Shown here: one piece after another, positions 273 through 59,777 of the stretch
Layout of the letters: every line of letters begins with the position of its first letter
How positions within the stretch are numbered: position 1 is the stretch's first letter
Assembly (NCBI GenBank): GCA_977020255.1
Contig: CDROCS010001270.1
Span: forward strand, 372,001-436,000
From: Obrimoposthia wandeli
Taxonomy: Eukaryota
Reading direction: 5' to 3'
Length of the DNA stretch: 64,000 nt
Translations under genes and position numbers: made by a program
The notes under the pieces: generated by a model
Databases searched by the model: none
Seen by the model: the letters and a program-made list of their open reading frames with translations, nothing else
What the model was told of the DNA's origin: nothing

Positions 273-330
273 TACAACAAGACGATTTGATTTTTATATT
301 AAATTTAGGAATACATGGAAGTGATCCCAT
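85..330 (-). CDS. Small MG...CC protein overlapping the integrase 5' end
   Basis: MGSLPCIPKFNIKIKSSCCNG...; homologous ORF at the same position in element 2 (49251-49481). Confidence 0.5.
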   Translation of the reverse strand: MGSLPCIPKFNIKIKSSCCNGENMVRSKSSRWLHRGFKISKRVKEGEKGNSGVVEKSISLQLKQTNETSVPNEIIQNEWAK

Positions 331-369
331 ATATAAATTCATATTATTGATTCAAATTTATGTTTATAA

Positions 370-798: not shown

Positions 799-1445
799 CT
801 TCGAGAAACTGGTTTTTTTGTTTGTTTATAGACGGTAATTCCCGATGGATTGAATATATCAGTTTTAATTCTAAAGTCATCGGGACAATCTTGAGTAAAA
901 TCAATAAAAATGTATCCATGAGGAATAGTAGTTGCATCTTGAAATGAATCAATTAGGAACTTTCTATTATTCAGGTAAGCTTGTCTTGAAACAAAATCAA
1001 CAACCGTCTGATCACGTGGATTTTTGAAGAGAACAAGGTAATGTACATTTAAATTACGAGTTCTATGATTCCCTCCTTGATGAAATAGATTTTGTGTGAT
1101 GAAAACAACAGTTACTTCACGATGTCGTGCTATTTTAGTGAATAAATTATTGAAATCACTCTCTTTATTTGCTTCTTGATATAAATCATCAATAACAATA
1201 ACATCATGTCGTTGTAATCGCTCAGACCAATTATCATCGAATCCATTAATGACTTTTATATTTTTGATTTTCTTAAACTCTTTACTGGTTAAACCAGCTT
1301 CTCCATCTCCTCCATGATGTCAGTATATCTTATTAAACTTAAAAGTAAAGTATTTATTATTTTACAGTAATTTACATACAAAATGAGTTTTCCCACTGCC
1401 ACTAGGACCTACAAACTGAAAAACTGAATTATTTTTTAAGTTCAT
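795..1445 (-). pseudogene. A32/FtsK-like packaging ATPase with two nonsense mutations
   Basis: MNLKNNSVFQFVGPSGSGKTHF (Walker A); TAA after KLL, TGA in place of W(H); VIVIDD and ARHREVTVVFITQN follow; TGA overlaps the next ATG. Confidence 0.9.
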
Positions 1446-2071
1446 AATAAAAATATTATATTATCGGGATAATGTTTATAAGACAAAGCTATTTAAAATA
1501 TATTATTATAATACATCCACTAAGAAACAATATAAAACAATATAAAACAATAAAAAACTCTTTTTTTTTTTTTTTGCTAAAGCTCTCTTATCTGCTAAAC
1601 CAGTAAAATTTGCTTATAACGATTCTAATCTTCTTTCTTCATATATCATATTTTCATTTCTTCTTACAAGAATAGTCATGTGATGTCATTGTCTTAAGAA
1701 TAAAACAGTATAAACAATATTTTGATAATGATTTTATTGAAAATGAATAATCAAAATAATCAAAATAATCAAAATAATCAAAGTAGAGCTAGTACATATA
1801 TAGGTTCCGGTAGTCATTTATATTCTAATATGAATTATAATAGAAATATTCAGAGAGAAAATATTAATCCATCAAGTCAAACAATAACAAGTCCTACGCG
1901 CGTAACCGAAGAACGTAAGCCATTTAAGGTTATGACTAATACTAAACGATTTTCATAAACAAGAATGTTAACCAATTGAGAGTAATCGATTTTCATAAAC
2001 AAGAATATCGACCAATTAGAATTGAGCTTTAGAGGATAAACAATTGAATATTTCAACTTATAATTTTATAT

Positions 2072-2380: not shown

Positions 2381-2533
2381 TTCAAGGATGCAAGGTCGGG
2401 CCCAGTGGATTGGAAACTCCTTATATGGAAAATAATTGAAGCTGTTCGAGTTGACTAATAAATTTTTTGTCTTTATTTGTATTATTTTATTTTATATATA
2501 AACAATAATGATACTTTAATAATAATATTTATT

Positions 2534-31042: not shown

Positions 31043-33531
31043 CAACGCATACTTCCTCTCGTCTAATCACAATGCGCGTTTGTCCACTCTCACTTCTGAT
31101 TGGATGATGTCCTTCCAATTAGATTTCCACATCGTAGGCTTCGGATTTTGATTGGTCTATTTTCAGCCAATCAAATTTCAATCTTTGTGAATGTATTTGA
31201 TTGGTCTATGTCTTTAACCAATCATATTTCAGAAATTTTTTATTTGGATAGTCGAATGGTCAGTTGATGAAATTAAAACCCTTTACAATATTCTTTTTAC
31301 AGTTTAAAGAATTATTTTAATTTTCTCATAATATTCTATCATATTATATGGAAACTCTTTTTTTCGATTTATTTTTTAATTTTTATTTCAAATCCAACAC
31401 TAAATAGCTGGTATGTTCACGTACTTAGTTTCTCAATGTCACCTTAAATATAAGAACTGATATCCGTCCATATTTAAAAATATTACGTTTCTTTGACATT
31501 TTAAAATAACTAATAAAACAAGAATATTGTAATTGGTATATTAGGTATATTAGATATATTTGGAAACATTTACACATTCAAAATTGAACCAACAATTCTA
31601 GACAATTAGGCTATACTTTTCTCAATACTTTTAGTTTCCGAACTTCACATCAACATTTTCCCTAATTTTGAACTTGAAAAACTTGCTGCTTGCTTTCTGT
31701 GTGAGATTTACTCCCCACTAGTTTTGTCGCGTGTCAATTTATGTTTATTTAAACATTACTATTAATATTTTGAAGTCAGATTTCATTGGAGATGAAAAAA
31801 ACGTTGATCCTTTTGACGTAGATTTTGAATTTGTTTCGTTTCATTTATTTCCACTACCTTTTAGAGGTGATATAAGTCCAAAGCTGATCAGTTAAAAACA
31901 TGAAAACAAACCCCCTAGCTCATCTCTTTACGTTTTCTTTAAAACATGTACAAGCTGAGTCATTCTACCGAGCGACTTTCTCTATTATCTCCCGTTTGTT
32001 AATTGGGATGTCGGTGTTTAAATAATAATACAACAAACATTAGTCTTCATCGAACAGTTTATTTGTGTCTATCTGATTAACTACGGCTTATATCACGGTT
32101 GAAAGTACTAGTTATTTTTGTTGTGTTCAACCTTTGTTGGGAGATGCTGCTATGTTGTGCGTATAGGGGAGTATGTGGAGTTTCTCCGTATGAAGTCTTT
32201 TGCGTGAATTGATTTTGACTTGTGTATTTGAAATATAATCGTAATAACAACAATTTCTTCTATTTGATATTCAAGAAATAATTCATTTAAAACATGTTGA
32301 AGCACATTTCATCGATTTTCAGAACGAATTTGGCACAATAGACATTTTGTTTCTAAACATTTTAAAATTACATTAAAATAAGAGTTTTATAACCAAAACA
32401 CGAAATTATTTGACTATTTTAAGGTAACGTAGGGTTGCATAAAGTCAATAATGAAAATTGAGCTCAAGATTATGGAAAACATACAGATGCAGTAATAAGA
32501 AAATGTCAATTAGGAAAACCTTGAAAAAATATTTATGGCTGAAAGCTAACATTTGCTGAAGGAGATTGTACAATCTATGAGACAATCATTGAAAAATAGC
32601 AAAAAAATTTACAATGCTTTAGAAGATGTCTTGGCAAAAAGAGATTCAAGAAACCAAAGGATTACTGATTATTGTCTTGCGTAATATTTTTAAGGGAATG
32701 TTCATATTAACTTTGTTATCAACACAGCCATTTCTTTGAATTTTATCGTTCACAATGAATAGTTCTAAATATTTTTGAAAATACACCATTTTAAATAGTC
32801 CGCATTTTAAACAGAATCAATTATAAATCACTTTCGTTACTACAGGTTCCATCGATTCTTTTTAATAACAAACTGTGTCAAACCCAGATCTCTTACAAGA
32901 TCCTCTTGTCTTGCTTTTCAGGAGAGATCCCATTTTCTGGCGATTCTTGTACTTGGTGTGATCCTGGGGCATTGAGTAAAAAATGTTTGGATATGGCTCA
33001 TTTTTCGATTTTTTAACATATTTATCAAAAAATATTTTTAACACTATTCAGAAATAATAGAAGTACTCGATGGCGATATACTGGTGATCTGTGACACCAA
33101 AAAACATTTTTGACTTTTATTTTAAATCACATGACATAAAGACATTTTAAAATTTTCTTTCATAAATGCTTCGCCTTTTTTCTTAATTTTACAATTTTTA
33201 GTAGCTTTTTTATGAATAGTGGAATCAACTTATTTAAAGTTTTCCATTAGATTTCTTTTTTATTTCTGCTTTTGCGCTGAACCGAAAAAGAAAACATTTT
33301 CACATTGAAAAACAGTACGCTTTTGTTTTACTCTACTTAAGTATAAATTTGCTCTTTGATTTGTAATCCATAAGTGGTCATTCATAACTAAGGAAATGTA
33401 GAGACATTTCCAAACAATACAAGTCAAATATGAGACAGAATATCGAAGAAATTCTGACGTACGCAAGCAAAAATCTAAGATTATTCGTATTTCTAAGCAA
33501 AAATAAATATTTGTAAAAACTGTGAATAAAC

Positions 33532-33936
33532 TAGTAATTTAAATGCCAAAAAGTAGTAATTTAAATGCCAAAAAGTAGTAATTTAAATGCCAAAAAGTAG
33601 TAATTTAAATGCCAATTTAGCAATTTAAATGCCAATTTAGTAATTTAAATGCCAATTTAGCAATTTAAATGCCAATTTAGCAATTTAAATGCCCAAAGTA
33701 GTAATTTAAATGCCCAAAGTAGTAATTTTAATGCCCAAAGTAGTAATTTAAATGCCAAAAGACACCAATTTAAATGCCAAAAACTAGTAAATTAAATGCC
33801 GTTTTTTAAATGCCCAAAGTGGTAATTTAAATGCCAAAATTTCACTCCACACACCTACACGAAATTTCACTCTACACACATGCACGGTTTTAAAGGACAA
33901 GGGGTGTGTGGATTAGACTGGACACATCTACCTACT
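33532..33936. mobile_element. Orphan Maverick-type terminus with 20-22 bp tandem array
   Basis: ~13 AATTTAAATGCC-core units (33532-33838); ends in CACATCTACCTACT (33923-33936), identical to the last 14 nt of element 1. Confidence 0.6.
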
Positions 33937-37445: not shown

Positions 37446-38754
37446 TGTTTATTTTATATGTTGAAGATAGCCAACGGATATTATTCGATAATGAAGATTT
37501 AGAAAATTTGAATATTCGGATAAGAATGTGTATGAAGAAGTGAAGCAATATTTCAAATACAAAGTCAGGGTCTTGAAGAAGGCTCAACTGATTGCTTTAG
37601 TAAATCCTGTGACAATTGAAAAAAGAAAGTTTAACTATTATCTATCAAATATTCAAAAACCAGATTTTTAATATCTCTAACAGAAAGTTGAAAAGGCAGT
37701 TTCAAGTTTTACATTAAATAAGAACGAATTTTATATCTGTGGGACTGATGCAGCATTTTTAGATGAATATGAACTAGAATAGATGATGATGCGTTTCCAA
37801 AAAAGAAGCAATGGATTGTAAAAATTCGACTTTATGGTTACAATAAGAGTAAAATAGGAACAAATCTACTCATATGGAAAATTGACCCTGCTCATATCGC
37901 TATGTTTTAACTTTTTCTTTTATCATGTTTCTTTCATTTGCATGTAATAAATTGTAATCATTTTTATTTATTTTTATTTCATAATATTTGTATCTTATAT
38001 GTATTTTTTATAAACATTGTTTTTAATCAGTTTCTTTATTTTAGAATGGATCCTCTTCTGAGATATGTAGTAAATTTTTATTATCCGAAAAGAATTTCAA
38101 AAAGAAAACCACGTAAAATATTAAAGGGGCATCAAATTGTTGGGGTTTCTATATGAAACTTATAGATCCTCTTGAATGTGGAGGGCCCCAACGTGAGTTC
38201 TATAGAAGCAGGACTTAAGGATGGTTGTGGCCTACTTAACGTTGTGTTTGCCTGTCTCAATTCTTATCTGAAGGGTTGTTGTTGTGTCTTAATCTGAAGG
38301 GTTTAGAACGATGCTTTCTAGTTGTAGGAAATCGTTTATTTATTAACACACTAGACTAACACGAATTAATACGTTTAAGTACGTATTTCTAAAAAGTTAC
38401 AATAAATTTCCTAAGACTTCTGTAAGTGTCTACACAAGTTGGGATGAACCACGTATCGATTTTAATTTTAGGGTTGAAGGTTTAAAAAGTCTTTCTAGTA
38501 TTTTGGTGATTGCACAAAATCAAAACTTGCTATAATTTATAGAGTCTTTCTAGTAAATTAACGATTACAAACTTGCTCTAAAACTTGCTCTAATTTATAG
38601 AGGCTTTCAAATCAAATTATATGATATCAAATTTTACGATACCAAATTTATGAATTACGGCTCAAAACTTTCAAAATCGACTTCCAAATTGCTATTTTAA
38701 TCAAGCTCTAATTTCTCAAAATCGTCTTCAATTTACTATTTAAATCAAATTCTC

Positions 38755-39130
38755 AATTCTCCAAAATCGGCTTCACAATTACTTATTTAAAATCGAGTTA
38801 TAAATTCTCCAAAATCGGCTTCACAATTACTTATTTAAAATCGAGTTATAAATTCTCCAAAATCGGCTTCACAATTACTTATTTAAAATCAAGTTATAAA
38901 TTCTCCAAAATCGGCTTCACAATTACTTATTTAAAATCGAGTTATAAATTCTCCAAAATCGGCTTCACAATTACTTATTTAAAATAGAGTTATAAATTCT
39001 CCAAAATCGGCTTCACAATTACTTATTTAAAATCGAGTTATAAATTCTCCAAAATCAGCTTCACAATTACTTATTTAAAATCAAGTTATAAATTCTCCAA
39101 AATCGGCTTCACAATTACTTATTTAAAATC
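38755..39130. repeat. 48-bp minisatellite, ~7.8 copies
   Basis: Unit AATTCTCCAAAATCGGCTTCACAATTACTTATTTAAAATCGAGTTATA at 38755, 38803 ... 39091. Confidence 0.97.
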
Positions 39131-39374
39131 ACGTTCTACTTTTATCTCCGCGCTTGTTCCTTACCTCTTCCGTATAAACTAGCGTCCGGTCTATATTGGC
39201 CTCCTCAGATGTCGGTCGAATCCTTTACTCGGTACCCTTGACGTGCTGTGATCGCACTGTACGGTTCTCGCTCTGGGTGATTCTGACGGTCTCTCCTCGC
39301 TTTTAGTTGTACTATAATAATCGAGTAATTTACTTTCGATTATTTAATCTTACCTTCTTCTTCGTTTTCGATTT

Positions 39375-44487: not shown

Positions 44488-45345
44488 AGAAGTGTAAAGT
44501 GTCGGTTCTAAAACAATAGCACACAAAGCCCTCCCCCCCCGAACAAGGCACAAGGAACAAAGCACATCTGAAATTTGATTAGTCATACAGATGTGCTTTG
44601 TTCCTTGTGCCTTGTTCGGGGGGGGGGGGCTTAGTGTGCTATTGTTTTAGAACCGACACTTTACGTCTCGAAATTTGTTTGGACTTATGCGTCACTTACG
44701 ATTATGTAGGTTAATATTTTGTAACATTTGTATATAGTTTAAAAANNNNNNNNNNNNNNNNNNNNNNNNNNNNNNNNNNNNNNNNNNNNNNNNNNNNNNN
44801 NNNNNNNNNNNNNNNNNNNNNNNNNNNNNNNNNNNNNNNNNNNNNNNNNNNNNNNNNNNNNNNNNNNNNNNNNNNNNNNNNNNNNNNNNNNNNNNNNNNN
44901 NNNNNNNNNNNNNNNNNNNNNNNNNNNNNNNNNNNNNNNNNNNNNNNNNNNNNNNNNNNNNNNNNNNNNNNNNNNNNNNNNNNNNNNNNNNNNNNNNNNN
45001 NNNNNNNNNNNNNNNNNNNNNNNNNNNNNNNNNNNNNNNNNNNNNNNNNNNNNNNNNNNNNNNNNNNNNNNNNNNNNNNNNNNNNNNNNNNNNNNNNNNN
45101 NNNNNNNNNNNNNNNNNNNNNNNNNNNNNNNNNNNNNNNNNNNNNNNNNNNNNNNNNNNNNNNNNNNTTTTGAAATTAAAAAATTTTAATTTTGAAATTA
45201 AACATAATTGACCGTCCCAAATTTTTATTTGCAACTATTTAATTTACTTAGTACTGCGACCTCATTCCAGGAGTTAGACTGCCCCGCATAACCGGACAGC
45301 TATCGCAGTTTTTATCATAAGAAACGTTATTGTTTATAGTACGAG
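44488..45345. repeat. Left TIR (contains N gap 44746-45167)
   Basis: Reverse complement of 59070-59777 on both sides of the gaps, with few mismatches. Confidence 0.95.
44494..44664. repeat. Terminal hairpin: 77-bp arms, 17-nt loop
   Basis: Arms 44494-44570 and 44588-44664; loop AAATTTGATTAGTCATA. Confidence 0.95.
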
Positions 45346-45394
45346 TCTATAATGAAGAAAGCAAAGTAACATCGATAAATATATATTAGTACAA

Positions 45395-46048
45395 TTATAA
45401 GCAAACTTGTCCATCAGTAATTTTCCAGATTGGTTTATGAAGACCTGTACAGTTGATTTTGTATCCCTGTATTGAAATGACGATCATCCACTTGAGTCCA
45501 GTTCCCATATTGTCAACATTAAAGTCGTGATCTCGCTTGAAAAGATTAGGATCAGCTCGAATTATTATATGATTCCCAACTATGATGTTGAGATGCATCG
45601 ACTCAAAAGTTTTGTTAAGATCATCAATATCTGACGGATTTAATCTATGTATCTTGAAATCGTATTTTGACGTATTCAGAGCCACCGGAAACATGAATCC
45701 ATATATGATTGGAGTCTTCAAAAAATTCATTTGCCAGTTATAAAACATAACCGGCTTGGTGTACTTCAAATCATTAGACTCAAATATTACACCTGATGGT
45801 TTATTGTTGAACGGTTTCTTATGTTTAGGTGTAGAGACTATATCATCAATAAAGAGATCCTCATTTGTTGCTTGCTTCTCAATCTTGATAGTCTTGGATT
45901 GTTTATTGTTGTTGCTTGTCATAGTTTGCTTCTTTGGTTTTGATATAAAAACTACATCATCATCATCATCGGTATCCACATCTGTGTCTGTAAGCCTTGT
46001 TGGTGGTGGCTTCTCGAACTTAAGAGATTTCGTTTGTTTATAGTTCAT
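45395..46048 (-). CDS. Divergently oriented accessory protein (217 aa), possibly OB-fold ssDNA-binding
   Basis: Intact ORF; acidic/basic N-terminus and beta-rich C-terminus (VISIQGYK...KPIWKI); function is inference. Confidence 0.7.
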   Translation of the reverse strand: MNYKQTKSLKFEKPPPTRLTDTDVDTDDDDDVVFISKPKKQTMTSNNNKQSKTIKIEKQATNEDLFIDDIVSTPKHKKPFNNKPSGVIFESNDLKYTKPVMFYNWQMNFLKTPIIYGFMFPVALNTSKYDFKIHRLNPSDIDDLNKTFESMHLNIIVGNHIIIRADPNLFKRDHDFNVDNMGTGLKWMIVISIQGYKINCTGLHKPIWKITDGQVCL

Positions 46049-46177
46049 ATCAAAATAATGAATTCTATACCAAAAGTGGTAGCTTATATATATATATATA
46101 TCATACTCGATTCTGATTGGATAATCTTTAGCTTAAAAATTTTATATATAGATTGGGTTATTTCCGTTAATTCAATC

Positions 46178-46666
46178 ATGAATCTTGCAAATATTAATTA
46201 TAAAGGTAAAGTTAAAGGAGACATCAGTCACTTACCCTTCAAAACCGGGAAACCATGTCAGTACGTGCACAGGTGTAAGGATTATACCCTTATAATCTTC
46301 CGTTCAGGTATGTTTTTATGTTAGTTAGTTAGTTAATTATTAGGAGCATGCAGGATAATGGGTTGCAAGAAACCTATTACTACAACTATGCTCAAGTGCC
46401 CATTTAGAATAAAGATTGATCGTATTCAATCAGTAACGGTTACTATCGATTTAGGTAAGAAGGTGAACCTATACAAGTTGTCTCAAAATTGTGGAGCTGC
46501 ATGCATGTTCGAACCAGAGTTGTTTCCTGCTTTGAGGTTTACAAAACACAATCCTCTATGCGTCAACATATTTGCAAGCGGGAAAGTGGTCATACTCGGT
46601 CTCAAGGATTTGGATTATCACTTTGATGTGACTTTGATAATAACTGATATTTTACTTTTGATATAA
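46178..46666 (+). CDS. TATA-binding-protein-like protein, 2 exons (46178-46307, 46344-46666), 150 aa
   Basis: 36-nt GTATGT...TTAG intron joins TLIIFRSG|ACRIMGCKK (repeat 1) to FEPELFPALRF...VNIFASGKVVILGLK (repeat 2; cf. TBP YEPELFPGL...IFVSGKVVLTGAK). Confidence 0.85.
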
Positions 46667-46707
46667 ACAATAAATTTTAGTTGAATTTTATTCTTACATG
46701 ATTTGAA

Positions 46708-47608
46708 ATGCTAGTTGATTATATACTTCATTATACAACTGTTGATGATGTTTTAGTTAGACGAAAAGTAGGTTATTCTAGAATGAAAGTTTTACATTGG
46801 AAATATAGACGTGAAAGTGAAAGATTAAGATCATTAATTATAAATTTTAAAGGGAAACAATCTGTAAATGATTTAGCAAAAGCCGGATTTTATAAACATG
46901 ATGATGATTCAACCGATAAAGTAAAATGTATATACTGTCAAGGTGCGTTATCCGAATGGGAATGGTATCTTAAACCAATGAAGCAACATATGAAATTTTT
47001 TCCTACATGTCCATTTCTTTTTAAAGTTAAATGTTTCAAATGTGCCAATAATTGAAACTATGGACAAGAAAATCGATTTTGATACATCACCATTGATTGG
47101 AAAAGTACATGTATCAGATATTGATGTAAAATTACCTGATATATGCTATTCAAAATGTTTAGGACTTTATAATGAGGCTAATGTTATTGAGAAAATCGAA
47201 ACAGATTGTATAATTGAATATCCTTTGACTATTGAGAAATTCGATATGTTGATGGATACAAACCAAATCAGATATTTGAAAAAGTTTTTCATGAAAGATA
47301 GAATAAAATCTGTTTTAAAATATAAAATGATGCGATATGGTGAATACAATTCACTATTTGAATTGCTTTGTGATTTATCTAATTTAGAAATGAAACCTGA
47401 AAAACAATATATAAATATACTTTCATACATTTTAAAGGAACCCGAATGTGTAGTATGTTTAAATAATCATATTGAAGTAGTATTTCTCCCTTGTGGACAT
47501 GTAAATACATGTATATCATGTTCTAGAATGTTACATTCATGTCCAGTATGCAGATGTTTGATCGAACGGAGAGTAAGAAATGTAAAATTTCATGATATAA
47601 ACAATTGA
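46708..47608 (+). pseudogene. Inhibitor of apoptosis (BIR + RING), split by a +1 frameshift at ~47020-47040
   Basis: BIR: ERLRS..LAKAGFY..VKCIYC..W..H....PTCPF, then NVPI in the next frame; C-terminal RING CVVC..FLPCGH..C..C..CPVCR. Confidence 0.88.
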
Positions 47609-47626
47609 AATTTATGATTTATATAA

Positions 47627-47893
47627 ATGGATAAAAACGATAAATTAGTTGATGATGCAGTCGAGGAAATTATAAACGGAACAATAAATGGAGTTCAATA
47701 CTTTTCTAGTTTTGATGGACTTTCGCGTAATAATATAAAGGAAATTGTTTGCACCCATGTCTATAGAGATATCAAACGGATTAAGGATTTTGAAAAATTC
47801 GTTCAAATTAATCGTTCAAACATGATGTATATAACCTTTTCTGCTACAATTTTTAATTCTCTGTTGTTGTATATATTAATAAAACGTATATAA
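47627..47893 (+). CDS. Hypothetical 88-aa protein with C-terminal hydrophobic anchor
   Basis: Intact ORF flanked by TATAAACAA motifs; tail MMYITFSATIFNSLLLYILIKRI. Confidence 0.65.
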   Translation: MDKNDKLVDDAVEEIINGTINGVQYFSSFDGLSRNNIKEIVCTHVYRDIKRIKDFEKFVQINRSNMMYITFSATIFNSLLLYILIKRI

Positions 47894-47923
47894 ACAATCG
47901 TTTCTTTTGATTTATTATTATTG

Positions 47924-48571
47924 ATGATGATAAAACTTAAAAATAACGCGGTTTACCAAATAGTAGGACCCAGTGGGAGTGGGAAAACACATTTTGTAAC
48001 TAAATTACTTCAAAATAAAAACATGTTTAATCAAAAGTTTGGTAGAATATACTGGCATTACGGAGGTGTAGGTGAATCTGGCCTAACACGAACTGAATTA
48101 GGTAAATTGAAAGGTATTCATTTTATTAATGGTTTTGATGATAAATGGTCTGAGAGGTTAAATTCAGGAGATGTCATTGTAATTGATGACTTGTATGATG
48201 AAGCGAATAAAGAGTCGGGTTTTAATAACCTGTTTACCAAAATAGCTAGACATAGAAATGTAACAGTGATTTTTATCACTCAAAATCTCTTTCATCAAGG
48301 CGGTCAACACCGTACTCGGAATTTAAATGTACATTATCTAGTATTATTTAAAAATCCGCGAGATCAAACGGTTATCGACTTTGTTGCCCGTCAAGCTTTC
48401 CCTTGCAATAAGCAATATTTGATTGACGCATTTCAAGATGCAACAACTAACCCTCATGGATACTTGTTTTTAGATTTTACACAGGAATGTCCAGACGATT
48501 TACGCGTGAGAACTGATATTTTCAATAATGATTTTGTATATAAACAAAAGAAAAGCCTATCTACTTGTTAA
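47924..48571 (+). CDS. A32/FtsK-like DNA packaging ATPase
   Basis: Walker A GPSGSGKT, Walker B VIVIDD, ARHRNVTVIFITQN; intact. Confidence 0.97.
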   Translation: MMIKLKNNAVYQIVGPSGSGKTHFVTKLLQNKNMFNQKFGRIYWHYGGVGESGLTRTELGKLKGIHFINGFDDKWSERLNSGDVIVIDDLYDEANKESGFNNLFTKIARHRNVTVIFITQNLFHQGGQHRTRNLNVHYLVLFKNPRDQTVIDFVARQAFPCNKQYLIDAFQDATTNPHGYLFLDFTQECPDDLRVRTDIFNNDFVYKQKKSLSTC

Positions 48572-48573
48572 TC

Positions 48574-48884
48574 ATGTCATTTATGAAAGAAACAATGCCT
48601 AGTGGAGTTGGACCTAAATGGAGACCGGGTGATAAATTACACGCTAATGATAACAAATTGATGCTAAAGAAGAATGCTCATATTAAAAATCTTATTAAAT
48701 CAGTGCTTCATCAGCGTAAAGTAGTCGATGAATCATTAAAGAAATCGGTAAAGACAGTAAAGAGAAACCTGTAAAAAAGAAACCATTAAAGAAGAAACCT
48801 GTTAAGAAAGCAGTTGGAAAGTCGGTTAAGAAGTCGGATAAAAAGCGTGTAAATAAACTAGTTGGTAAATGGATTAAACTATAA
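48574..48884 (+). pseudogene. Lys-rich basic protein; -1 frameshift at ~48760
   Basis: Continues in the -1 frame as EKPVKKKPLKKKPVKKAVGKSVKKSDKKRVNKLVGKWIKL*. Confidence 0.65.
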
Positions 48885-48915
48885 ACAATATTGCAAATAG
48901 TTTAATTCATTAAAT

Positions 48916-49245
48916 ATGTTATCAAAATCTATACTTCCCTACTTTCAGGCTTTAATCAAGGCTCCAAGCATATATAGACAACGTATACTCAAGTCATTTC
49001 CACCCTTTGTTATTGATAAGTTGGTTGAAGTCTTGTTTAATATTACAAAAGGTACTGTAAAAATCGGTAATCATAAACATAACCTTAGAAAACATCAAAA
49101 AGCTTTACTTGATTTAGTGAATACTAAAAGTAAAACTGGTAAACGTAGAGTAATTCTAAAACAAAAAGGTGGTTTTATCGGTGCATTAATACCTATAATT
49201 GCTACTTTAGTATCTCCTTTGATTGCAAAATTGATAAACTCATAA
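48916..49245 (+). CDS. Conserved Maverick protein with adenovirus pX-like C-terminus
   Basis: QKGGFIGALIPIIATLV resembles adenoviral pX GG.LP.LIP.IAAAI; homolog at 370-798. Confidence 0.8.
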   Translation: MLSKSILPYFQALIKAPSIYRQRILKSFPPFVIDKLVEVLFNITKGTVKIGNHKHNLRKHQKALLDLVNTKSKTGKRRVILKQKGGFIGALIPIIATLVSPLIAKLINS

Positions 49246-49250
49246 ACAAA

Positions 49251-49481
49251 ATGGGTAATAACATACCAAACATCGATTTTAAATTCACTTGTTGTAATGG
49301 AAACGATATGGTACGATCCCGAAAACCCAGCTGGGTACAGCGGCGTTGGCAAACTATCATTAAAAAGTCAATCGACTCAAAAGAAAACTCAGAAATGGCT
49401 GAGCAATCAGCTAGCATACAGTCTAAACAAGCCAATGAAGCGGAAGTTCCCGACTCGAGCATACAGAACAAGCGGTCCTAA
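49251..49481 (+). CDS. Small MG...CC protein overlapping the integrase
   Basis: MGNNIPNIDFKFTCCNG...; homolog at 85-330. Confidence 0.5.
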   Translation: MGNNIPNIDFKFTCCNGNDMVRSRKPSWVQRRWQTIIKKSIDSKENSEMAEQSASIQSKQANEAEVPDSSIQNKRS

Positions 49482-50332
49482 CGATTTATGGCAGGCCGAT
49501 TTGATGGAAATGATACCATATGCAAGTATCAATGATGGTAACAAGTATATTTTAACATGTATTGACGTGTTTACAAGGTATGCGCGTGCATTACCTGTAA
49601 AATCTAAATCAGGTAAGGATATAGAGGCTGCTCTAAGTATAATGACTGATAAAACTGTCCCCATACATGTGCAAACTGATAAGGGTAAAGAGTTTTACAA
49701 CAAAAATGTAGGTAGTTTATTTAAAAAATTAAATATTGAACATTACTCTGTAGTTTCACAATTCAAAGCTGCCCTAGTTGAAAGGTTTAATAGAACATTG
49801 AGAGATCGATTAAAAAGACATTTTATTGTACAAGGCAATAAAAGATGGGTTGACGTTTTACCAAAAGTAATGACTTCATACAATCACAGTAAGCATAGAG
49901 GTTTAGACGGATTGAGACCTGTCGATATTAATGATAAAAAATGCAATGGAAATTTGGTTGAGTCGTAATCAAGTCGATAAAGTTAATAAACCCAAACATA
50001 AGACTGGTGATTATGTTCGGATATCAAAGTTTAGTGGTAGCCCCTTTATTAAAAACTTTGATCAGAATTGGAGTGATGAAGTGTTTAGGATAGAGAAAAT
50101 AGACAAACGTGCAAATCCTGTAATGTACTCTATAGTTGATGATGACTGTAATGTAATAACAGGGAAATTTTATGAACCTGAACTACAAGTAATTGATAAA
50201 CCTACACTTTTCCGTATCCAAGAAGTCGTAAAATCTAAAGGCCGTGGTAAGAATAAACAATATCTCGTAAAGTGGCATGGATATTCTGAATCAACATGGA
50301 TCAAAGCAAGCCAGATAGAGACTTCTATATGA
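49297..50332 (+). pseudogene. rve integrase with C-terminal chromodomain; +1 frameshift in A6 (49936-49941)
   Basis: WQADL, LTCIDVFTR, VQTDKGKEF, VERFNRTL; then YRISK...FYEPELQ and QYLVKWHGY..STW. Confidence 0.95.
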
Positions 50333-51464
50333 TTTTACCGAGTAATAGTTGTCCGAAAACTCAACCTAATAATATGGCTTCATTATTCACTGTAGATTGG
50401 GAGAATCCAATTACGTTAAATGGTAAATGGGAGGCGGCATTAACTGAATTTACGTACACAAACACTCCTGTTATTTTAAATAAGGGCAGTGAAATTAATT
50501 ATTCTATTAAATTCTCCAATCAACAGACTGATCAAATATCTTTATCAGTAATTCATACTCAAGTAGAAGTAGAAAAGAAAGAACCGCAATTGCATGGTGA
50601 TAAATCAGAACCAAAAGTTATTAAAAAGACAATTAATAAAATATCAAAACTCACCGTCACGTCTAAAGATAAGATTGCAAAGCTTTCTATTTCCTTAAGC
50701 ACAGTTGGTGTAGGTATTGATAAAAGGATAATGTTGTACTAATAAAATCCGTCAACAACAAAAAATTCTATATCAAGATGGATGCTGACGCTAAAAATGA
50801 ATTAGGATTCATTTTCAATACATTAACTTCAGAAGGTTTCGAATCTGATGATAAAGGAGTTTTACTTGGATCAACGTCTATCAGACCTGATTGCAGTGCA
50901 CATAATTTACAATATATGCATTATAAAACCGGTTCATACAACAAGAAAATTGTATTTACAGAAGATTTAAATAATAATAATGTAAATGCATTAGTAGCAT
51001 ACATTAAATCTAAATGCGACGTCATATTTAAAAGATTTTATATTGATGATAATGATAAGCTAATAAAATTTGTATTAAAGAATGGAATTGAGCATATTGG
51101 ATTTGATCAACGTTTAATGTATGTATTAGGGTTAGATAAATCACGATTTACGGGCAACGGGTCTGGACTACCTCGATTAAATTACGAGTTTGATCACATG
51201 TACTTGTATTCTAGTCTGTGTGAACCTGTAAACGTTGGAGGTCAAATGATACCCTTATTAAAATCTATATGGTTAGATAAAAATAAAGCACCAGGAGACA
51301 CGGTTAATATCGCAATATACAGACCCATGTATATCCCTTTAGCATCAAATGTAATCTCAAACATTGAAATTAATATTAGAAACGATGCAGGTGTTCCAAT
51401 AAGTTTTTCCAACAATGCAAAAGTATCCCTTACCATACATGTCCGTTGTATAGATCAGGTATAA
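50296..51464 (+). pseudogene. Minor capsid (penton/PX) protein; -1 frameshift at ~50721-50740
   Basis: DFYMILPSNS...GKWEAALTEFTY N-terminus; MYLYSSLCEPVNVG..PLLKSI..YIPL..IEINIRND.G C-terminus. Confidence 0.88.
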
Positions 51465-51500
51465 ACAATCTGTATTCAAAAATAGTTGTCCATTACAGTT

Positions 51501-51898
51501 ATGAATATAATTGAGACATTTAGTGGGCCTCAACAAGGTGGTGAATTACCATATTTTGTAGGTAAACAGTACGGTTCGGGATGGTTGAAAACATTGGGGC
51601 GGTTAGCATTCCCTATACTGAAAAGATTAGGCCGTGTTGGAGTTAAAACAGTTCAAGATGTAGTAATGAACAACAAATCTGTGTTAAACAACATGCACTA
51701 GGGGAAGTTGCCGGAGCCATACCAGAGGCTAAGGAAGCTTTTGGTACTGTTGTTAAAATTATTAAAAATCGACGTAAACGTAAAGCAAGTGAAGCAGCAC
51801 AAACGGTTGAACCCGAAACTAAAAAGCAAGAGGGTAGTGGTAGAAAGAAAGCATCTAGTATAAACAAACGAAGAAAACAAGGTACTATATTTGCTTAA
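51501..51898 (+). pseudogene. Core (pVII-like) protein; frameshift at ~51690
   Basis: QQGGELPYF.GKQYGSGWLKTLGR.AFPIL; alternate frame ALGEVAG...RRKRKAS...QEGSGRKK...KRRKQGTIFA*. Confidence 0.75.
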
Positions 51899-51900
51899 TA

Positions 51901-52919
51901 ATGGCTTGTGGTAAATCTGAATTATGTATTTTTGATCGAGCTTTGCCCCAGGTAGTTGTAAGTAATGGTAGCTTTGACAATGAATAACAATGAATAATAC
52001 TGTAGTAGAAACCCATCCTCAATATGCACAAAAAGCTATGATTGAAACCATACTAAACTATAGCACAGACACTAAAGACACTTGTTTGTCGAGTATAGGT
52101 TATGATGATGATGATGATAAGCGTAAAGGTTGGGCTGCTCGCTCAAAAGAAATTGACTTGTGTGGGACTCTTCGATCAGATATTTTTGAGCAACCAAAGT
52201 ATCTCTTACCTGGTGTGTCTATCATGGTAAGACTTGTACCTAATAAATCTATGTTTTGTCTGAACTACGGAACGACTCTAGCGCGAATCATATTTATTGA
52301 AGCTAAACTTAAAGTCAGCAGAGTCAGAGTTGAGAATGATGTTTAAATGGGACATAATATTGGTCTTGAATCTAGGAATGCTGTATATCCCTATACTCGC
52401 AGAAAGCTAATGTATCATACCTTAGCCATCGGTTCTACGAGTTTTTACAAGGATCAAGTGTTTGATGATGAACAATTGCCTAAATTTGTGTTGATTACGT
52501 TGCAAGCAGGTGAAAAACTTATCGGTAATGGTGCTACAGACTCTTCAACATTCGATCATTCTAATGTTAACACTATCAGTCTTGCTAGAAACAGTGATTT
52601 TAACGAATCTTACAGTACAAACTTTGAAACAGGTGAAACCACCTTTGCATATGTCCAATCTATCATTAGAAATATGGGTAATTTGGATAAGAATATAAAC
52701 AATGGCGTATCACTGGATGAATTCAAAACCAAATATCCATTTTTCACGTTTGTTTTAGCCCCTGACTTTGATATCACGCAAAACCAATTAGCAAAACAGG
52801 GTAATTTACGCCTTGACATCAAGTTTCACAAGTCATTAACAGTCCCAACAAACGTACTGATTTACGGGATTTTTGATTCTGAGTTTGAAATAACTAAAGG
52901 CCGACGTGTGATTGTATGA
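51901..52919 (+). pseudogene. Major capsid protein (PY/hexon-like); internal deletion and nonsense codon
   Basis: MACGKSELCIFD start; break at 51985-51990; Y..KAMIETILNYS, DIFEQPKYLLPGV; in-frame TAA 52344-52346; LPKFV, FDHSNV, GNLRLDIKF...VLIYG. Confidence 0.9.
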
Positions 52920-53296
52920 AGTGAGTTTTTAATTTATGTTTTAAGATTTTATTAATCCAAAGTACTGTTCAGGTGAATGAAATAACTAGTTTGCTGCTCG
53001 GACCGCGATTTAAGGGTGTATACCCGTTGGAAAAAATCCCAACATTAACGCCTGGGGGATATATTGTCAATACACATACCTCAAATCTTCCTGGAGAACA
53101 CTGGATTGCGTTATTCGTGAGACGGAATTCTGTACATGTGTATGACCCTCTTGGAGTATACTATCCGGGAAAACTTATCAAGCATGTAGAGTCTCAAGGA
53201 AAACATGTATATTACAACAAAATTCGTTCTCAAAACCCACTGACTACTAATTGCGGTCCACTATGTATCTTATGGTTGTATGATCAAACTATATAA
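52916..53296 (+). CDS. Adenain-like cysteine protease, 2 exons (52916-52920, 52963-53296)
   Basis: Catalytic H/D/C motifs GEHW, YDPLG, Q...CG. A 42-nt GTGAGT...AAAG intron gives MNTVQVNEIT; the ATG overlaps the MCP stop codon. Confidence 0.88.
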
Positions 53297-53681
53297 ATGT
53301 CTGTTTTTTATTTGTGTTGATTGGTAATAAAATTTGTATTCAAAATTGTATTTGTTTTATAAATAGCTGCCCCATTGAAATTTAAAAATTTTATTTTGAG
53401 TTTTGATAAATTAAAAAATAGATTTAAAATCTACTAATTAAGAAAAAATTAATGGTGTTAATTATTTTTTAAAATTTAAACTCTAACGGTGTGAATATCG
53501 GTTATGAAAAATTCATAATTGATTGACCGTAATTAACCTTTATGATCACGTGTGTAGCAACTAGGGAATAAAGAGTCTTTATTACGCATTCCTAGTTTGT
53601 AAGTACACACGTGATGTGTGACGTGTACATCTAGGGCAGCAACTACACTGATTGTGAACCATATATAAACAATCAGTGTAG

Positions 53682-56600
53682 ATGCATTCATCAATTTTAT
53701 CGCTATTATCAAAAGTAAGTATTTTGATTTTATTTTAATTTTATTTAATTTTATTTCTTTAGATGTCAAAAATTATTTTTGCCCGAAATGGAAAGAAAAT
53801 ATGGACCATAAAGCCTCCTTTAGTCGATATGGATGATGATGTCGACTTGGATGCGACACCGGTTAAAAAAGTAATTTGTTTTATTAGTATTTTTAATTTA
53901 ATTTTCATTTAGCCCAGTGTCACAACAACACCAATATCGATTGCACCATGGATTGCGGATGATGCTACTAAGAAAATAAGAAGAAAACAGAAGATGCCGA
54001 CAACATATGATGAGGATAATGATGATAAGAAGAATCCAAAAGTTTTTTTATCTCTTGAGAAATCTTCTCAACTTCCTTCTTCTTCTTCATCTTATTCTCA
54101 TTCTCATTCTCATGTTTTGTCTCCATATGACGATCATTTATATAAACTTTTTGGGGATATAAGGGATATAAAATCTTATTCTCCCGACTGCGATAGCTGC
54201 CCGGTAACGCGGGGCAGTCTAACTCCTGGAATGGGGTCGCAGAATAAGTTAATTAAATCAAGAGGTTACCCCTTACTTTTTAAACCAGGAACACCTGTTG
54301 GGTCACCTGTTAATTCAGTAGAAAATTTCGACGTAAATGAAATATACTCGGGTTTTGAAAATATCCCGTTTAAAAAATATTTTAACCAGTTAAAGAAAGC
54401 TAAAAATCAAAATATTGATTTAAGTAAACTTAAAACAGAAGGTAGGAAAGGTAAAAGATTTCGTCAGAAGCTGCGTAGATTGAGAAAACTACCAGCAGAC
54501 ATAACAATATTTGCAAATTTATTAGGGTCTTGCAAACCCATTAATATTAGTCCAGGTCTGAAAATTACAGATCTGGCAAATAAATTATATAAAGTCTTTG
54601 AGACTGATCAAATTTATTTTAACCGTAATGGCATGCCCTTTGAAAGGGAAGCTATTATCGGTGATGTTTTACATGAGGGGCTATTATCCATGTATACCCT
54701 AAACTTCGTGGAGGAAGTAACTTATGTACATTGTACAAGTATTGCACAAACGTTAATCATGGAATAGAATGTCATAGTGTAATGCTTAAATATTATAAAT
54801 TTAAAAGCGGTTTTATTTGTCCACATTGTGATGTGTTATATTGTATTGACTATCAAACATTTTATAACAATCATAAGGATCATCTGACGTATTTTAAGTC
54901 TAAAAAGTCAGCATACAAACGTAAAGTAATGAGAGTACCAACAATATACAACAATAAAATAGCAAAAACTAATAATTTTAATGAAGAGTTTGATGTGGTA
55001 GACTCGTGGGAACCGGATAGTGTTGTAGAAATTGATACTTATCCTGAAGTTGTAGAAATTATTGAGCCTTTAAGCCCTAATGAAATCTTAAATAATAATA
55101 ATATTGATGAACTTATAGATCAGGACGAGTTTATAACAGAAAATGATTTTTTCGACTCACTCCTAACTATTACGGATGATGACTTTGATAATATTGTTAC
55201 AATTAATTCAGATAATACATTAACTTTTAACAATCAAATAGGAGGTGCAATTCAATCAAACCTTGTTTTTGATGTTAGTGGATTAAACATGCTTAAACTA
55301 TACATTAACGATACTATGCTAACTGAACTTACTAGCAGTATAGATGTGTTTGGTCCCTGTAAAATACAGTTTGGTGTTGAAACCGAATTTGTCAATAACG
55401 AGGGTCAACATAAAACATGGCATGTAAGCTGTAAAGCAAATATTTTTGAACAAGATTTTATCACTACAAGAACAGTTGAGCTCAACAATAAAATTGAAAT
55501 TTATAAGGATATGAGTTCGGGATGGTCAGTATTTAAAATTCTGTTGGTATCCTTTAAATTTACTGCACTTTCAAACGTAGCAGGATCATCATCTATAAAA
55601 ACCCCGGTTGCGCTTGCTAAAACACTATCTATAGTGAACGTAAATAATACTGATGATCAGTGTTTTAAATACGCTGTTCTCAGTATCCTACACTATAAAG
55701 ATTTCAATCGAAACAGACAAAGAGTTGAAAACTATAATGATTATTTAAATGAACTTATATGTGAGCCTGGTCCTATGAGGATAGACGGCATCAAGGCGTT
55801 TGAAAAACTCAATAATATAGCGATAACAGTATTCTCCTATAAACCTACAAAGGTAGAGCCTCATAGTAGTCATCTAGTGTTTAAAAACCCAGATGTTAAT
55901 GTTATTTATAGAACGAGTCTTAAACAGTGCGAAAAAGTAGTAAACTTGTTGCTGTTGGAACAGAGCGGTAATTATCACTATACAGGGATAACAAACCTGA
56001 ATAGACTTTTAAATACTCAAAAATATAATGTGCGTCTCTTTTGGTGTGAGAAATGTCTTTTTGGATTTCGAACCACGATTTCATATGACAAACACAGGGC
56101 ACATTGTAATATTAATACAGATTTAACAACCTTGTTTACAATGCCCAAAGAGATCAAGTGTCAATTTTCCGACTGGTCTAAATCTATTGCGCCACCATTT
56201 GTTGTATATGCCGACTTTGAGTCAATACTCGAGCCACATAATACTTTCAAACATATTCATAAACCAATATCTATAGGGATGATTTTGAAAAACAACACTA
56301 ATAATTCAATACAATATTTCAGTTATTACGGTCTGCAGTGTGCTAAAAACTTTGTAGATAAATTAACTGAGTTGATAAATGGTGAAGTGGCAGATTTTTG
56401 GGTAAATAGTATTAATGTTCCTATGGTTTTTACTAATAATGACATGTTGAACTTTAGAGATTGCACTAATTGCTATCTTTGTAAAAAATTAAACGATCGT
56501 ATGGTTAGAGATCATGATCATATCACGGGTAAATACTTGGGTGCGGCATGCAACAAATGCAATTTAAGTCGCAAGTTTGCAAAGAGACCGGTTTTACCTG

Positions 56601-58526
56601 TGGTGTTTCAAACCTTATGGGTTATGACATACATCATATTTTAAAATATGCCGACTTGAAAGGTAAATCCTTTTCAATTATCCCTAAATCAAGTGAAAAG
56701 TTCATGTCCCTCCGTATAGAGATGAAGAGGGGGACATTGAAATTCATTGATTCATACCTTTTACAACGTCAAGTCTTGAATCCTTAGTTTCATACTTGCC
56801 AAGTTGTCCTTATACTACACAATACCTAAACCCTAATATTGCAACAAGTAAGGCGGTATTTCCGTATGAATATATTAGTGGTGTTGATAGGCTTATGGAG
56901 ACGCAGTTACCCGCTAAATCTGAGTTTCCTTCTCGAGTCACTGATCAACAATATAATGAAGCCCTAATGATGTGGACCGTATTAGGGTGTAATACTATTA
57001 AAGACTACATGCTTGAGTATATGAAACTTGACGTGTATCTCTTATGTGATGTTTTTGAGGCCTTTAGACAGAAAGTAAGGGATGATGATAATCTAGAGGC
57101 GCTCAATTTCTTTAGTATCCCTGGTCTCAGTTGGGCTAGCGCATTAAAAACATTAGAGTATGATGTGGATTTATTGCATGATCCCGAAATGTATAACATG
57201 TTTGAGGCAGGGATACGGGGAGGGATGACTTTCATCAACAAACATTACGTTAAAACAACAGATGAAACATTCCTTCTATATATTGACATAAATAACTTAT
57301 ATGGTTGGGCCTTGAGTCAACCGTTACCACATACAGATTTTACATGGGTATATGACGGTTTTGAAGCGATAATTGAGCTTATAACTGAGAGGGATATTCA
57401 CGGTAATATGCAGGACTTGAGTCTTAAAGAACATGGATACTTGTTGGAAATTGATTTAGGCATACCCATCAGTATTCATAATAAACTTGATGACTTACCG
57501 ATTGCGCCTAATAGAGAAATCCCTCCCGGCTCAAAAGCTTCAAAGCTGTTGATGACCCATGAGGATAAAAATAATTACATCATACACTCACAACTACTAC
57601 AATTTTACTTGTTTCTGGGTGCAGAAATTAAACAAGTGCATAGAGCAATAAAGTTTCATCAAGCTCCTATATTTAAAACATATATTGATATCAATAGCCG
57701 GAAACGGGCAGAGGGTACTACTACATTTGATAAAGAGTTTTATAAACTCAAAAATAATTCAATATATGGTAAGACAGTGGAAAATCTTAAAAAGCGTAAA
57801 GATATCCGTCTTACCAAGAATGATCGTCAGTTTACTAAACTTGTTTCAAGCCCCTGGTTTAAGAAGCATACCCAAATAACCGACAATCTCAATCTTTTAT
57901 TTATGCAAAAGAAAGAAATTTGTCTGGATCGACCATCATATATTGGTCAAGCTGTGTTGGACTTATCTAAACTACGTATGTACCAACTACAGTATAGTGA
58001 TCTTGACCGGTATCGTAAGCAATATCATTGTGATATCAACATAGTTGCAATGGATACAGACTCGTTTTTCTTAGAGTGTAAGCATATAGATAAAGATGTC
58101 CTCTTAAAACAAATGATTAAAGATCAGATGTTAGATACAAGTAATTACCCGATCACACATGAGTTATTTAACGATTCTCATCGAAATGTGATTGGAAAGT
58201 TTAAAGATGAAAGCAAGGGGACAGTGCTTTATGATGAATGGGTATTTCTGAAACCTAAATGCTACTCATTGAAAACGAGTATGAGGGCTAAGGGTATCTC
58301 CCTTAAACAAACCGAAATCAGACATGAGCATTACATAAAGTGTTATGTTGATGATGAAATTATAACTGCCGGTCAGACACGTATTTTATCTCGCAATCAT
58401 CAATTATTTACAATGTATAATGATAAAATTGCGTTAAGGTGTTATGACGATAAAAGGGTTTGGCTTGAGAAAAACAAATCCGTCGCATATGGACACTATA
58501 GTCTAAAATCTGGGGTAACCTCTTGA
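53682..58526 (+). pseudogene. Protein-primed DNA polymerase B polyprotein (5' spliced; UBL-LRGG, ZnF, TP-like, EndoVII-like, exo, pol); three -1 frameshifts
   Basis: Introns 53715-53762 and 53871-53912; shifts at ~54678, ~56610, ~56760; YADFES, NLMGYD, VRDHDH..G..CNKCN, YIDINNLYG, KLKNNSIYGK, MDTDS, FLKPKCY, KGIS. Confidence 0.95.
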
Positions 58527-58691
58527 AAGTATTAACTAATATCCTCTTATTTTTAATGTGATAGTATGTATCTTTTTAATGCAATAGTATGTATATATTT
58601 TTAATGCTATAGTATGTATATATTTTTATTGATGTTAATTTTTAATACATTGTATGTATCATAACCATGTCTTGACTTCCTACTAGCTACT

Positions 58692-58742
58692 CATTGGATA
58701 ATTTCATTGGATAATTTCATTGGATAATTTCATTGGATAATT
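58692..58742. repeat. 14-bp tandem x4 carrying ATTGG (reverse CCAAT) boxes
   Basis: (TCATTGGATAATT)n, ~60 nt upstream of ATG 58802; a ~27-bp x3 repeat also lies at ~58552-58627. Confidence 0.8.
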
Positions 58743-58801
58743 TTAACAAATTCTCTATAAATATAAACACATTTCAATCAACCAATTTCTCATTATTTCA
58801 A

Positions 58802-59044
58802 ATGACTACTTCTAAAGAAAAATTGCAAGCTCTCTATGATAACCTGAGCCCTACCTTGATGGCCCAGTATACTGAAAAGTACTTTAGCTTATTTGTTGCA
58901 CCAGAACTTTTTGTCTCAAGGATTGAAGAACTTTATATGTATCACCTGTTTAATGGAGACTTTAAACCTAAAGTTGCAACAATCATTAAAATAGAAGAAG
59001 AAGAAGAAAGCATGGATTGTGACAATGAATATAATTATGTATAA
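58802..59044 (+). CDS. Hypothetical 80-aa acidic-tailed protein
   Basis: MTTSKEKLQALYDNL...EEEEESMDCDNEYNYV*; no family recognised. Confidence 0.5.
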   Translation: MTTSKEKLQALYDNLSPTLMAQYTEKYFSLFVAPELFVSRIEELYMYHLFNGDFKPKVATIIKIEEEEESMDCDNEYNYV

Positions 59045-59069
59045 ACATAGACTTTTTTTTTTTACTAAA

Positions 59070-59777
59070 CTCTTACTATAAACAATAACTTTTCTTATGA
59101 TAAAACTGCGATAGCTGTCCGGTTATGCGGGGCAGTCTAACTCCTGGAATGAGGTCGCAGTACTAAGTAAATTAAATAGTTGCAAATAAAAATTTGGGAC
59201 GGTCAATTATGTTTAATTTCAAAATTAAATTTTTTNNNNNNNNNNNNNNNNNNNNNNNNNNNNNNNNNNNNNNNNNNNNNNNNNNNNNNNNNNNNNNNNN
59301 NNNNNNNNNNNNNNNNNNNNNNNNNNNNNNNNNNNNNNNNNNNNNNNNNNNNNNNNNNNNNNNNNNNNNNNNNNNNNNNNNNNNNNNNNNNNNNNNNNNN
59401 NNNNNNNNNNNNNNNNNNNNNNNNNNNNNNNNNNNNNNNNNNNNNNNNNNNNNNNNNNNNNNNNNNNNNNNNNTTTTTGAATTTTAAGTTTTTTAATTTT
59501 AAGTTTTTGAAATTTGAAATTTTTAAACTATATACAAATGTTACAAAATATTAACCTACATAATCGTAAGTGACGCATAAGTCCAAACAAATTTCGAGAC
59601 GTAAAGTGTCGGTTCTAAAACAATAGCACACAAAGCCCCCCCCCCCGAACAAGGCACAAGGAACAAAGCACATCTGTATGACTAATCAAATTTCAGATGT
59701 GCTTTGTTCCTTGTGCCTTGTTCGGGGGGGGGGGGGCTTTGTGTGCTATTGTTTTAGAACCGACACTTTACACTTCT
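59070..59777. repeat. Right TIR (N gap 59236-59473), with terminal hairpin 59601-59771
   Basis: Inverted copy of the left TIR; loop TATGACTAATCAAATTT (59677-59693). Confidence 0.95.

Follow-up and report, generated by a model that had tools for sequence, protein, structure and literature searches.

Among described systems, late transcription in beta- and gammaherpesviruses offers the closest parallel to the arrangement analysed here. As set out in the portion of PMC12529657 available to us, ORF24 of KSHV, the herpesvirus associated with Kaposi's sarcoma, has a virus-encoded TATA-binding protein (TBP) fold whose DNA face is polar and whose partner is a variant TATA box on minimal structural-gene promoters, and early genes use host-like promoters. 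A comparable set of features appears in a Maverick/Polinton element of Obrimoposthia wandeli, which spans positions 44488-59777 (~15.3 kb) of a 64,000-nt stretch of contig CDROCS010001270.1 (GenBank assembly GCA_977020255.1, positions 372,001 to 436,000, forward strand), hereafter the window. The element encodes a TBP-like protein and repeats the 9-mer TATAAACAA, a non-standard TATA-like box ~36 nt before many of its packaging and virion genes and not before the TBP gene itself, whose conserved core across relatives is YATAAACA. We conclude that YATAAACA is very probably a real, lineage-wide promoter element, and we favour, with distinctly less assurance, the reading in which the element's own altered TBP recognizes it.

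The ORF24 TBP is a single domain within a multi-domain protein that belongs to a six-protein complex, whereas the Maverick TBP stands alone at 150 amino acids (aa), too short for the RNA polymerase II (Pol II)-binding N-terminal domain, and no Pfam match among 18 open reading frames (ORFs) suggests partners, with unnamed ORFs remaining. The acidic stirrup is kept in the Maverick protein and missing in ORF24; one of the four phenylalanines is replaced by proline, whereas ORF24 needs all four; and the herpesvirus motif TATTWAA differs from the TATA box at position 4, YATAAACA at position 7, leaving the Maverick box outside TATTWAA. The Maverick system appears to work like the herpesvirus viral TBP/TATT system but is not a member of it. 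With canonical TATAWAWR boxes and cellular TBP it shares the distance to gene starts and the protein fold, and canonical boxes with an initiator make up the element's other promoter class. YATAAACA departs from that consensus by the C at position 7 on which the sites were defined and by T/C at position 1, lacks an initiator, and is accompanied by a TBP in which about nine DNA-facing residues are fixed otherwise. Virophages and polinton-like viruses likewise carry an element-wide motif before start codons. These motifs, and the TBP-like factors of giant viruses and poxviruses, act with a viral RNA polymerase; no such polymerase gene was seen among this Maverick's ORFs, and a structure search with a homologue of the element TBP also matched viral TBP folds.

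Mavericks, Polintons and adintoviruses, as covered in the available part of Starrett et al. 2021 (PMC8502044), share with the present element terminal inverted repeats (TIRs), a 6-bp duplication, a family B DNA polymerase (PolB), an rve integrase, an A32-like ATPase, a double jelly-roll (DJR) capsid protein and an inhibitor of apoptosis protein (IAP). Its figure legends, and the preprint 10.1101/697771, name a TBP-like gene in related non-animal elements; in the main text as available, 'promoter' occurs zero times and a two-class promoter system is not described. The terms TATA, TBP and promoter are likewise absent from the accessible parts of PMC11071308, 10.64898/2026.10.13.758929 and 10.64898/2026.06.19.733378. 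Searches combining Maverick, Polinton or adintovirus with TBP, TATA or promoter found no paper on the motif outside subscription journals, which the search did not reach, and supplements may annotate TBP-like genes. In the window, the TIRs have AG...CT ends with the target duplication AAGACA on both sides. Window ORFs match the Pfam families rve (1e-12) and Pox_A32 (8e-7), with a DJR-like match (0.004) below the cut-off, and the major capsid protein (MCP) aligns with that of relatives. The polB ORF has no Pfam match and aligns at 35% with relatives; the polB of a related family, C, matches PF03175. The element thus has the TIRs with target duplication, integrase, ATPase, DJR capsid and family B DNA polymerase that define a Maverick/Polinton. 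We call it family A, of which the host genome (G000) holds at least 150 copies at 97-100% protein identity. Two further own-genome families, B and C, were sampled from six stretches each; B is the "element 1" of an earlier sequence-only reading of the window, which first drew attention to the motif.

In the 13.7-kb element interior, TATAAACAA occurs nine times on the coding strand and once on the opposite strand, and the 45 kb of flanks hold none on the forward and one on the reverse strand. Markov models of orders 1-5 predict 0.5-1.7 coding-strand copies, and none of 200 simulations reached nine at any order. The 9-mer ranks second among 9-mers (Poisson p 8.6e-7, uncorrected for ~13,000 9-mers). 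Because the motif was picked after the fact, this in-window enrichment alone is modest, and the out-of-sample test carries the weight.

For that test, the second half of the TBP-like ORF served as query and brought up 109 homologues, most of them ~150 aa long, 84 of which were aligned, and a search with the TBP alignment led to 79 metagenomic loci. The TBP-carrying set (n = 57) comprises L025-L091 (67 loci) with L109 and L110, minus 11 near-duplicates and minus L090, which belongs to another clade; left outside it were L092-L103 (nine archaeal-type TBPs, with L093, L094 and L097 treated as other clades). Controls (n = 34) were Polinton-type loci found through PolB, ATPase or capsid and showing no TBP match in the stretch examined (2 kb for L114). 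Further scans gave 2, 5, 1 and 2 loci; L135, L171 and L172 were taken from these into the analysis. Scans of viral contigs with the window ATPase, the MCP alignment and a broad TBP alignment yielded no new Mavericks, and a phage collection gave no match. The Maverick contigs L109-L114 sit inside bacterial metagenome-assembled genomes, where they were probably binned by contamination.

With own-genome copies removed, (T/C)ATAAAC lies 30-50 nt before 63/275 ORF starts of the TBP-carrying set (in 33 of 57 loci) versus 2/351 starts in the 34 controls, a co-occurrence that is confounded with lineage and set against mostly distant or partial controls. The five closest controls gave 1/42 starts, and five loci with other TBP types 0/56. 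TATAAAC, counted over 60 TBP-carrying sequences (three from the own genome), stands in that 30-50 nt interval before 60/314 starts versus 2/349 in controls, and is the best of 105 letter permutations (60 versus a median of 1). A de novo search per locus placed ATAAAC as top 6-mer in 9/23 TBP-carrying sequences and 0/29 controls. The motif's distance peak, 31-45 nt, is the same as that of canonical TATATAWR in these elements.

Across relatives the consensus is (T74/C16)ATAAAC(A82)(A56/T32); the core of the motif is YATAAACA, shorter than the 9-mer first described, whose ninth base is unconserved. Positioned sites (n = 82) are divided among 42 intergenic cases, 18 over a stop codon, 12 on YKQ and 10 on xIN codons, in all three frames, and Ile-Asn is written ATAAAC in 24/50 instances near ORF ends versus 36/326 elsewhere (p 6e-9). 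Intergenic and all-frame positions, together with this codon skew, indicate that the signal resides in the DNA. The 40/82 sites that overlap an upstream ORF end might be taken to mean that stop codons, YKQ/INK peptides or an upstream gene's polyadenylation signal produce the motif incidentally, an explanation that we strongly disfavour and hold to be extremely improbable: the other 42 lie between genes, all three frames are used, codon choice is skewed only near ORF ends, and the spacing is tied to the downstream ATG.

Out-of-frame ATGs occur at 24/1146 positions before +28 versus 1/472 after +30 (p 0.003), as expected if RNA starts near +30. With the spacing, single orientation and frame independence, this loss supports the Pol II TATA-type promoter proposed in the sequence-only reading, except at site 53664, which probably belongs to the canonical class (below). 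Four sequencing runs of unstated kind, examined over contigs, showed even coverage and no start signal. A host forkhead site serving as proximal activator had been raised as an alternative, and ATAAACA does match the forkhead consensus RYAAAYA. In the 30-50 nt before 339 starts, however, YATAAACA occurs 64 times, against GTAAACA 1, GCAAACA 0, ACAAACA 1, GTAAATA 2 and the reversed motif 1, and the consensus-breaking YATAAACG and YATAAACT occur 11 and 5 times. Fixed spacing and a single orientation, both seen here, are untypical of forkhead sites, and we regard this disfavoured alternative as very improbable.

The promoters fall into two classes. Gene-class counts used a window of 30-56 nt before mechanically called ORF starts, so spliced or mis-called starts lower them. 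By this measure the motif precedes 16/23 ATPase genes, 12/16 core-protein genes, 4/16 integrase genes and 7/10 members of a family that we take to be phospholipase-like. It precedes 0/57 TBP genes (15 with a canonical TATA box), 0/11 polB genes and 1/15 of the TBP's neighbours. A TCAKT initiator at +27 to +31 accompanies 14/38 canonical versus 2/75 pure-motif promoters (p 2.5e-6), and 0/16 dual sites.

In the window, canonical TATATATA at 46143-46150 (+) lies 35 nt before the TBP-like ATG with TCAAT at +29, an arrangement seen in 5/5 other copies. On the opposite strand, canonical TATATAAG at 46083-46090 (-) lies 42 nt before the divergent ORF 45395-46048 with TCATT at +29; these two promoters would form an early class. 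The neighbour ORF, checked as a possible TFIIB, has no Pfam match, and its atlas leads were an unnamed cluster and DDE-transposase clusters. At 53662-53672 (+), TATATAAACAA combines a canonical TATA box with the overlapping motif at 53664, with CACGTG/TGACGT upstream and a GTAAGT donor at 53715. The overlap with canonical TATATAAA (53662) and the TCAAT at +29 give this site a canonical-class appearance; no conserved ATG lies behind it, its +18 ATG being missing in 3/5 other copies, and it is probably an early promoter of the polymerase region. The motif genes would make up a "late" class, a label drawn from gene class, which it matches imperfectly.

The TBP-like gene (46178-46666, +) matches Pfam TBP with E 6e-13 and encodes a 150-aa product. 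A 36-nt GT-AG insert at 46308-46343 holds in-frame stops, and homologues lack these 12 codons; at this position family B carries another GT-AG insert, of 40 nt, and family C none. As inserts differ or are missing at this one point, we infer that 46308-46343 is an intron. A model of homologue P0001 (predicted local distance difference test score 96) superposes on yeast TBP (7o4i_O) with Z 13.4 and a root-mean-square deviation of 2.6 over 150 aligned residues, a predicted TBP fold with a two-repeat saddle. The host genome itself encodes several TBP paralogues. It also holds a tandem array of ~15 partial copies of the family B TBP-like gene (L003, G000:C2844:270001-277200).

We compared the DNA face of 84 homologues with host, archaeal and microsporidian TBPs. 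In presumed yeast numbering, the element family keeps N69, F116, F190-P191, F207 and the EPELFP stirrup. Fixed changes in the first half are V71N (95%), F99P (98%), V122R (98%) and T124M (99%), and in the second half N159S (96%), V161T (89%), I194R (99%), V203C (100%), L205N (100%) and T215L (81%), the latter percentages perhaps inflated because the homologue search used that half. The canonical set of four intercalating phenylalanines and two central asparagines is incomplete: the first Phe is Pro (98%) and the second Asn is Ser (96%). I194, V203 and L205 are presumably the sites of an engineered TBP mutant that reads TGTA. Such a mutant exists (PMC1802564), and the available part of that source does not confirm the residues.

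In a tree, YATAAAC lineages mostly share the fixed residues, and L090/L093 and L097 carry other sets. L090 has TTAAGC before 6/18 starts (0/200 permutations), and L097 has CATAAGAGG six times, all on the coding strand with ~0.5 expected, five of them with an ATG 32-47 nt on. Covariation of TBP residues with the promoter motif across these three lineages is suggestive only. TGAAA in L172/L171, a candidate guessed by eye, was rejected as too common.

These observations (co-occurrence of motif and TBP gene, 0/57 at the TBP gene itself, the missing initiator, the altered DNA-facing residues and other motifs with other TBPs) make it probable, if by no means secure, that the element's own TBP reads YATAAACA. 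Several points weigh against this reading. Co-occurrence is confounded by lineage and host: most controls are distant (ATPase E about 1e-5 to 1e-19), many are partial and their TBP may lie outside the stretch, and no same-host control exists because all three examined own-genome families carry the TBP gene. In the host, distant ATPase, MCP and PolB queries for a TBP-less Maverick family led only to A and C among the copies fetched. Only 3 of the 9 de novo top words reached <=10/200 permutations, and 3 and 4 loci had too few ORFs. The motif is often missing at the called start of virion genes (present in MCP 4/11, penton 5/16, protease 0/4), and it also precedes the non-structural IAP (2/3) and an unnamed acidic-motif family (10/18). 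CATAAGAGG in L097 did not surface in the permutation test, and the TBP-carrying L172, L093 and L094 show no clear upstream motif. The structural model is that of P0001 and not of the window's protein.

Two further points on that side also bear on host TBP as the reader: 16/91 sites overlap canonical TATATAAA (75/91 lack a canonical box), and in Arabidopsis protoplasts TATAAACG still gave 27% activity with host-type TBP (Table 4 of PMC10005294, available in part). Host TBP, or one of the several host paralogues, might read the motif as a weak TATA variant, maybe only on amplified, unchromatinised element DNA, with the element TBP as decoy or co-factor; the motif's spacing, that of a TATA box, would suit it. 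Yet C at position 7 and, in 14 sites, at position 1 is disfavoured by canonical TBP and nonetheless fixed across lineages, and the yeast HIS3 TR element loses its activity when position 7 is C (PMC4457894, in its accessible part). The initiator is missing, the motif is nearly absent in loci without a TBP match, and host reading leaves the motif-free TBP promoter and the fixed changes in the element TBP unexplained; we consider it unlikely, though it is the strongest competitor of the favoured reading. Virophage promoters provide a precedent for reading by a helper virus, and the conserved ORF beside the TBP, to which no function is assigned, could itself be a reader. That helper-virus machinery or a different element-encoded protein reads the motif is nevertheless quite improbable, for the putative TBP intron and the TATA-initiator promoters point to nuclear Pol II, and a TBP fold that would fit a box at the TATA position is already among the element's own products.

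Under the favoured reading, in which the element TBP is the reader, host TBP/TFIID would first transcribe the genes with canonical TATA and TCAKT, namely the TBP-like gene, its divergent neighbour and the polymerase region. The 150-aa TBP would then bind YATAAACA, preferring TATAAACA over TATAAAAG; host TBP would use YATAAACA poorly because of C at position 7. Through its retained EPELFP stirrup, the element TBP would bring in host TFIIB and Pol II with no need of an initiator, RNA synthesis would begin ~28-31 nt downstream of the motif with leaders of ~1-15 nt, and packaging and virion genes would be switched on as a second, predicted late, wave. More tentatively, and as a possibility we would not yet bet on, this Maverick group might use stand-alone, altered-specificity TBPs as sigma-like factors for host Pol II. 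Each lineage would then have co-evolved a TBP surface and its code (YATAAACA, TTAAGC, CATAAGAGG); a single protein would provide the early-to-late switch, and the TBP-promoter pairs would be naturally orthogonal. If the element TBP does read the box, late transcription in herpesviruses would have an independent counterpart in minimal form, and TBPs with new DNA specificity would be available from nature. The box, the second promoter class and the candidate reader offer a way to test if Mavericks of animals carry out a genuine viral programme and how they would time capsid expression while lacking an RNA polymerase.

Turning to individual sites, all eight coding-strand copies listed by the sequence-only reading, the TIR pair and the ATG distances in both elements proved exact; the list had missed exact copies at 52694, 46042 (-) and 1709, and an 8-mer at 58762. 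In family A, the site at 46662-46670 (+) overlaps the TBP stop codon and lies 46 nt before the IAP (BIR-RING) gene, which is one 299-aa ORF in copy C333. The next, 47596-47604 (+), falls within the RING C-terminus, 31 nt before an 88-aa ORF with no function assigned. The site at 47889-47897 (+) overlaps both TATATAAA and a stop codon; it stands 35 nt ahead of the packaging ATPase and recurs in families B and C with flanks that cannot be aligned. At 48539-48547 (+), the motif sits in the ATPase C-terminus (YKQ), overlaps TATATAAA and precedes by 35 nt a basic ORF (48574, frameshifted in this copy). The copy at 48880-48888 (+) is 36 nt before the core-protein gene (48916), whose pX-like tail has an Adeno_PX match (E 3e-4) that does not reach the curated cut-off. 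The site at 51460-51468 (+) covers the stop of the penton-like gene (labelled by synteny) and lies 41 nt before a small ORF at 51501, presumably a virion-accessory protein. The motif at 51859-51867 (+), also present in families B and C, is 42 nt before the major capsid gene (51901), which is broken in this copy and a 406-aa ORF in C333.

Other copies are less readily placed. The site at 52694-52702 (+) falls within the MCP frame, is not followed by an ORF start and is unexplained or due to chance, and the reverse-strand TATAAACAA at 46042 lies inside an ORF. The 8-mer TATAAACA at 58762-58769 (+) follows canonical TATAAATA at 58756 and precedes an 80-aa ORF (58802) by 40 nt. In family B, motif copies lie at 822-830 (-), 32 nt before the core-protein ORF; at 1709-1717 (+), 34 nt before an ATG at 1743; and at 2497-2505 (+), 37 nt before ORF 2534. 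The variant TATAAACAT occurs at 1472-1480 (-), 35 nt before the ATPase (broken by two stops in this copy), and at 360-368 (-), 26/38 nt upstream of a small ORF that overlaps the start of the integrase; GATAAACAA at 2035-2043 (+) is 37 nt before ORF 2072. In families B and C alike, the TBP-like gene is present and the motif stands ahead of the ATPase, core and capsid genes, with flanks no longer alignable.

TBP-carrying Mavericks are very abundant in the host genome, with at least three families and at least 150 matches each for A and B; a polB search gave 91 matches, and the six fetched were family C. To the left of the window, no more than 20 kb away, there is a further Maverick-type element. 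The flank contains tandem arrays (38643-39218; 33506-33827) built of 48-nt and of 20/22-nt units, and the TIR ends (44488-44664 and 59601-59777) form long nested hairpins with G/C runs. The protease frame (52914-52972) lacks its own ATG and motif here, and the interval from the MCP stop to this frame holds words resembling splice donors and acceptors. A small ORF at 49251-49481 (+) and 85-342 (-), which begins Met-Gly and contains a Cys-Cys pair, overlaps the start of the integrase in a different frame; it occurs in families A, B and C and several metagenomic loci, with the motif 36-38 nt upstream in B and C, not A, and its product is possibly a lipid-anchored protein.

The two TIR copies of the motif, 59077-59085 (+) and 45330-45338 (-), lie 28 and 29 nt before a 61-nt GC-rich structured element at 59105-59165 (+) and 45249-45309 (-), which has an internal copy at 54187-54242 (+). 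Nothing in Rfam scored above gathering for this structure. Its predicted fold has several stems (z about -2.6), most copies compared have it in identical form, and it begins where transcription from the TIR motif would start, making it a candidate small RNA.

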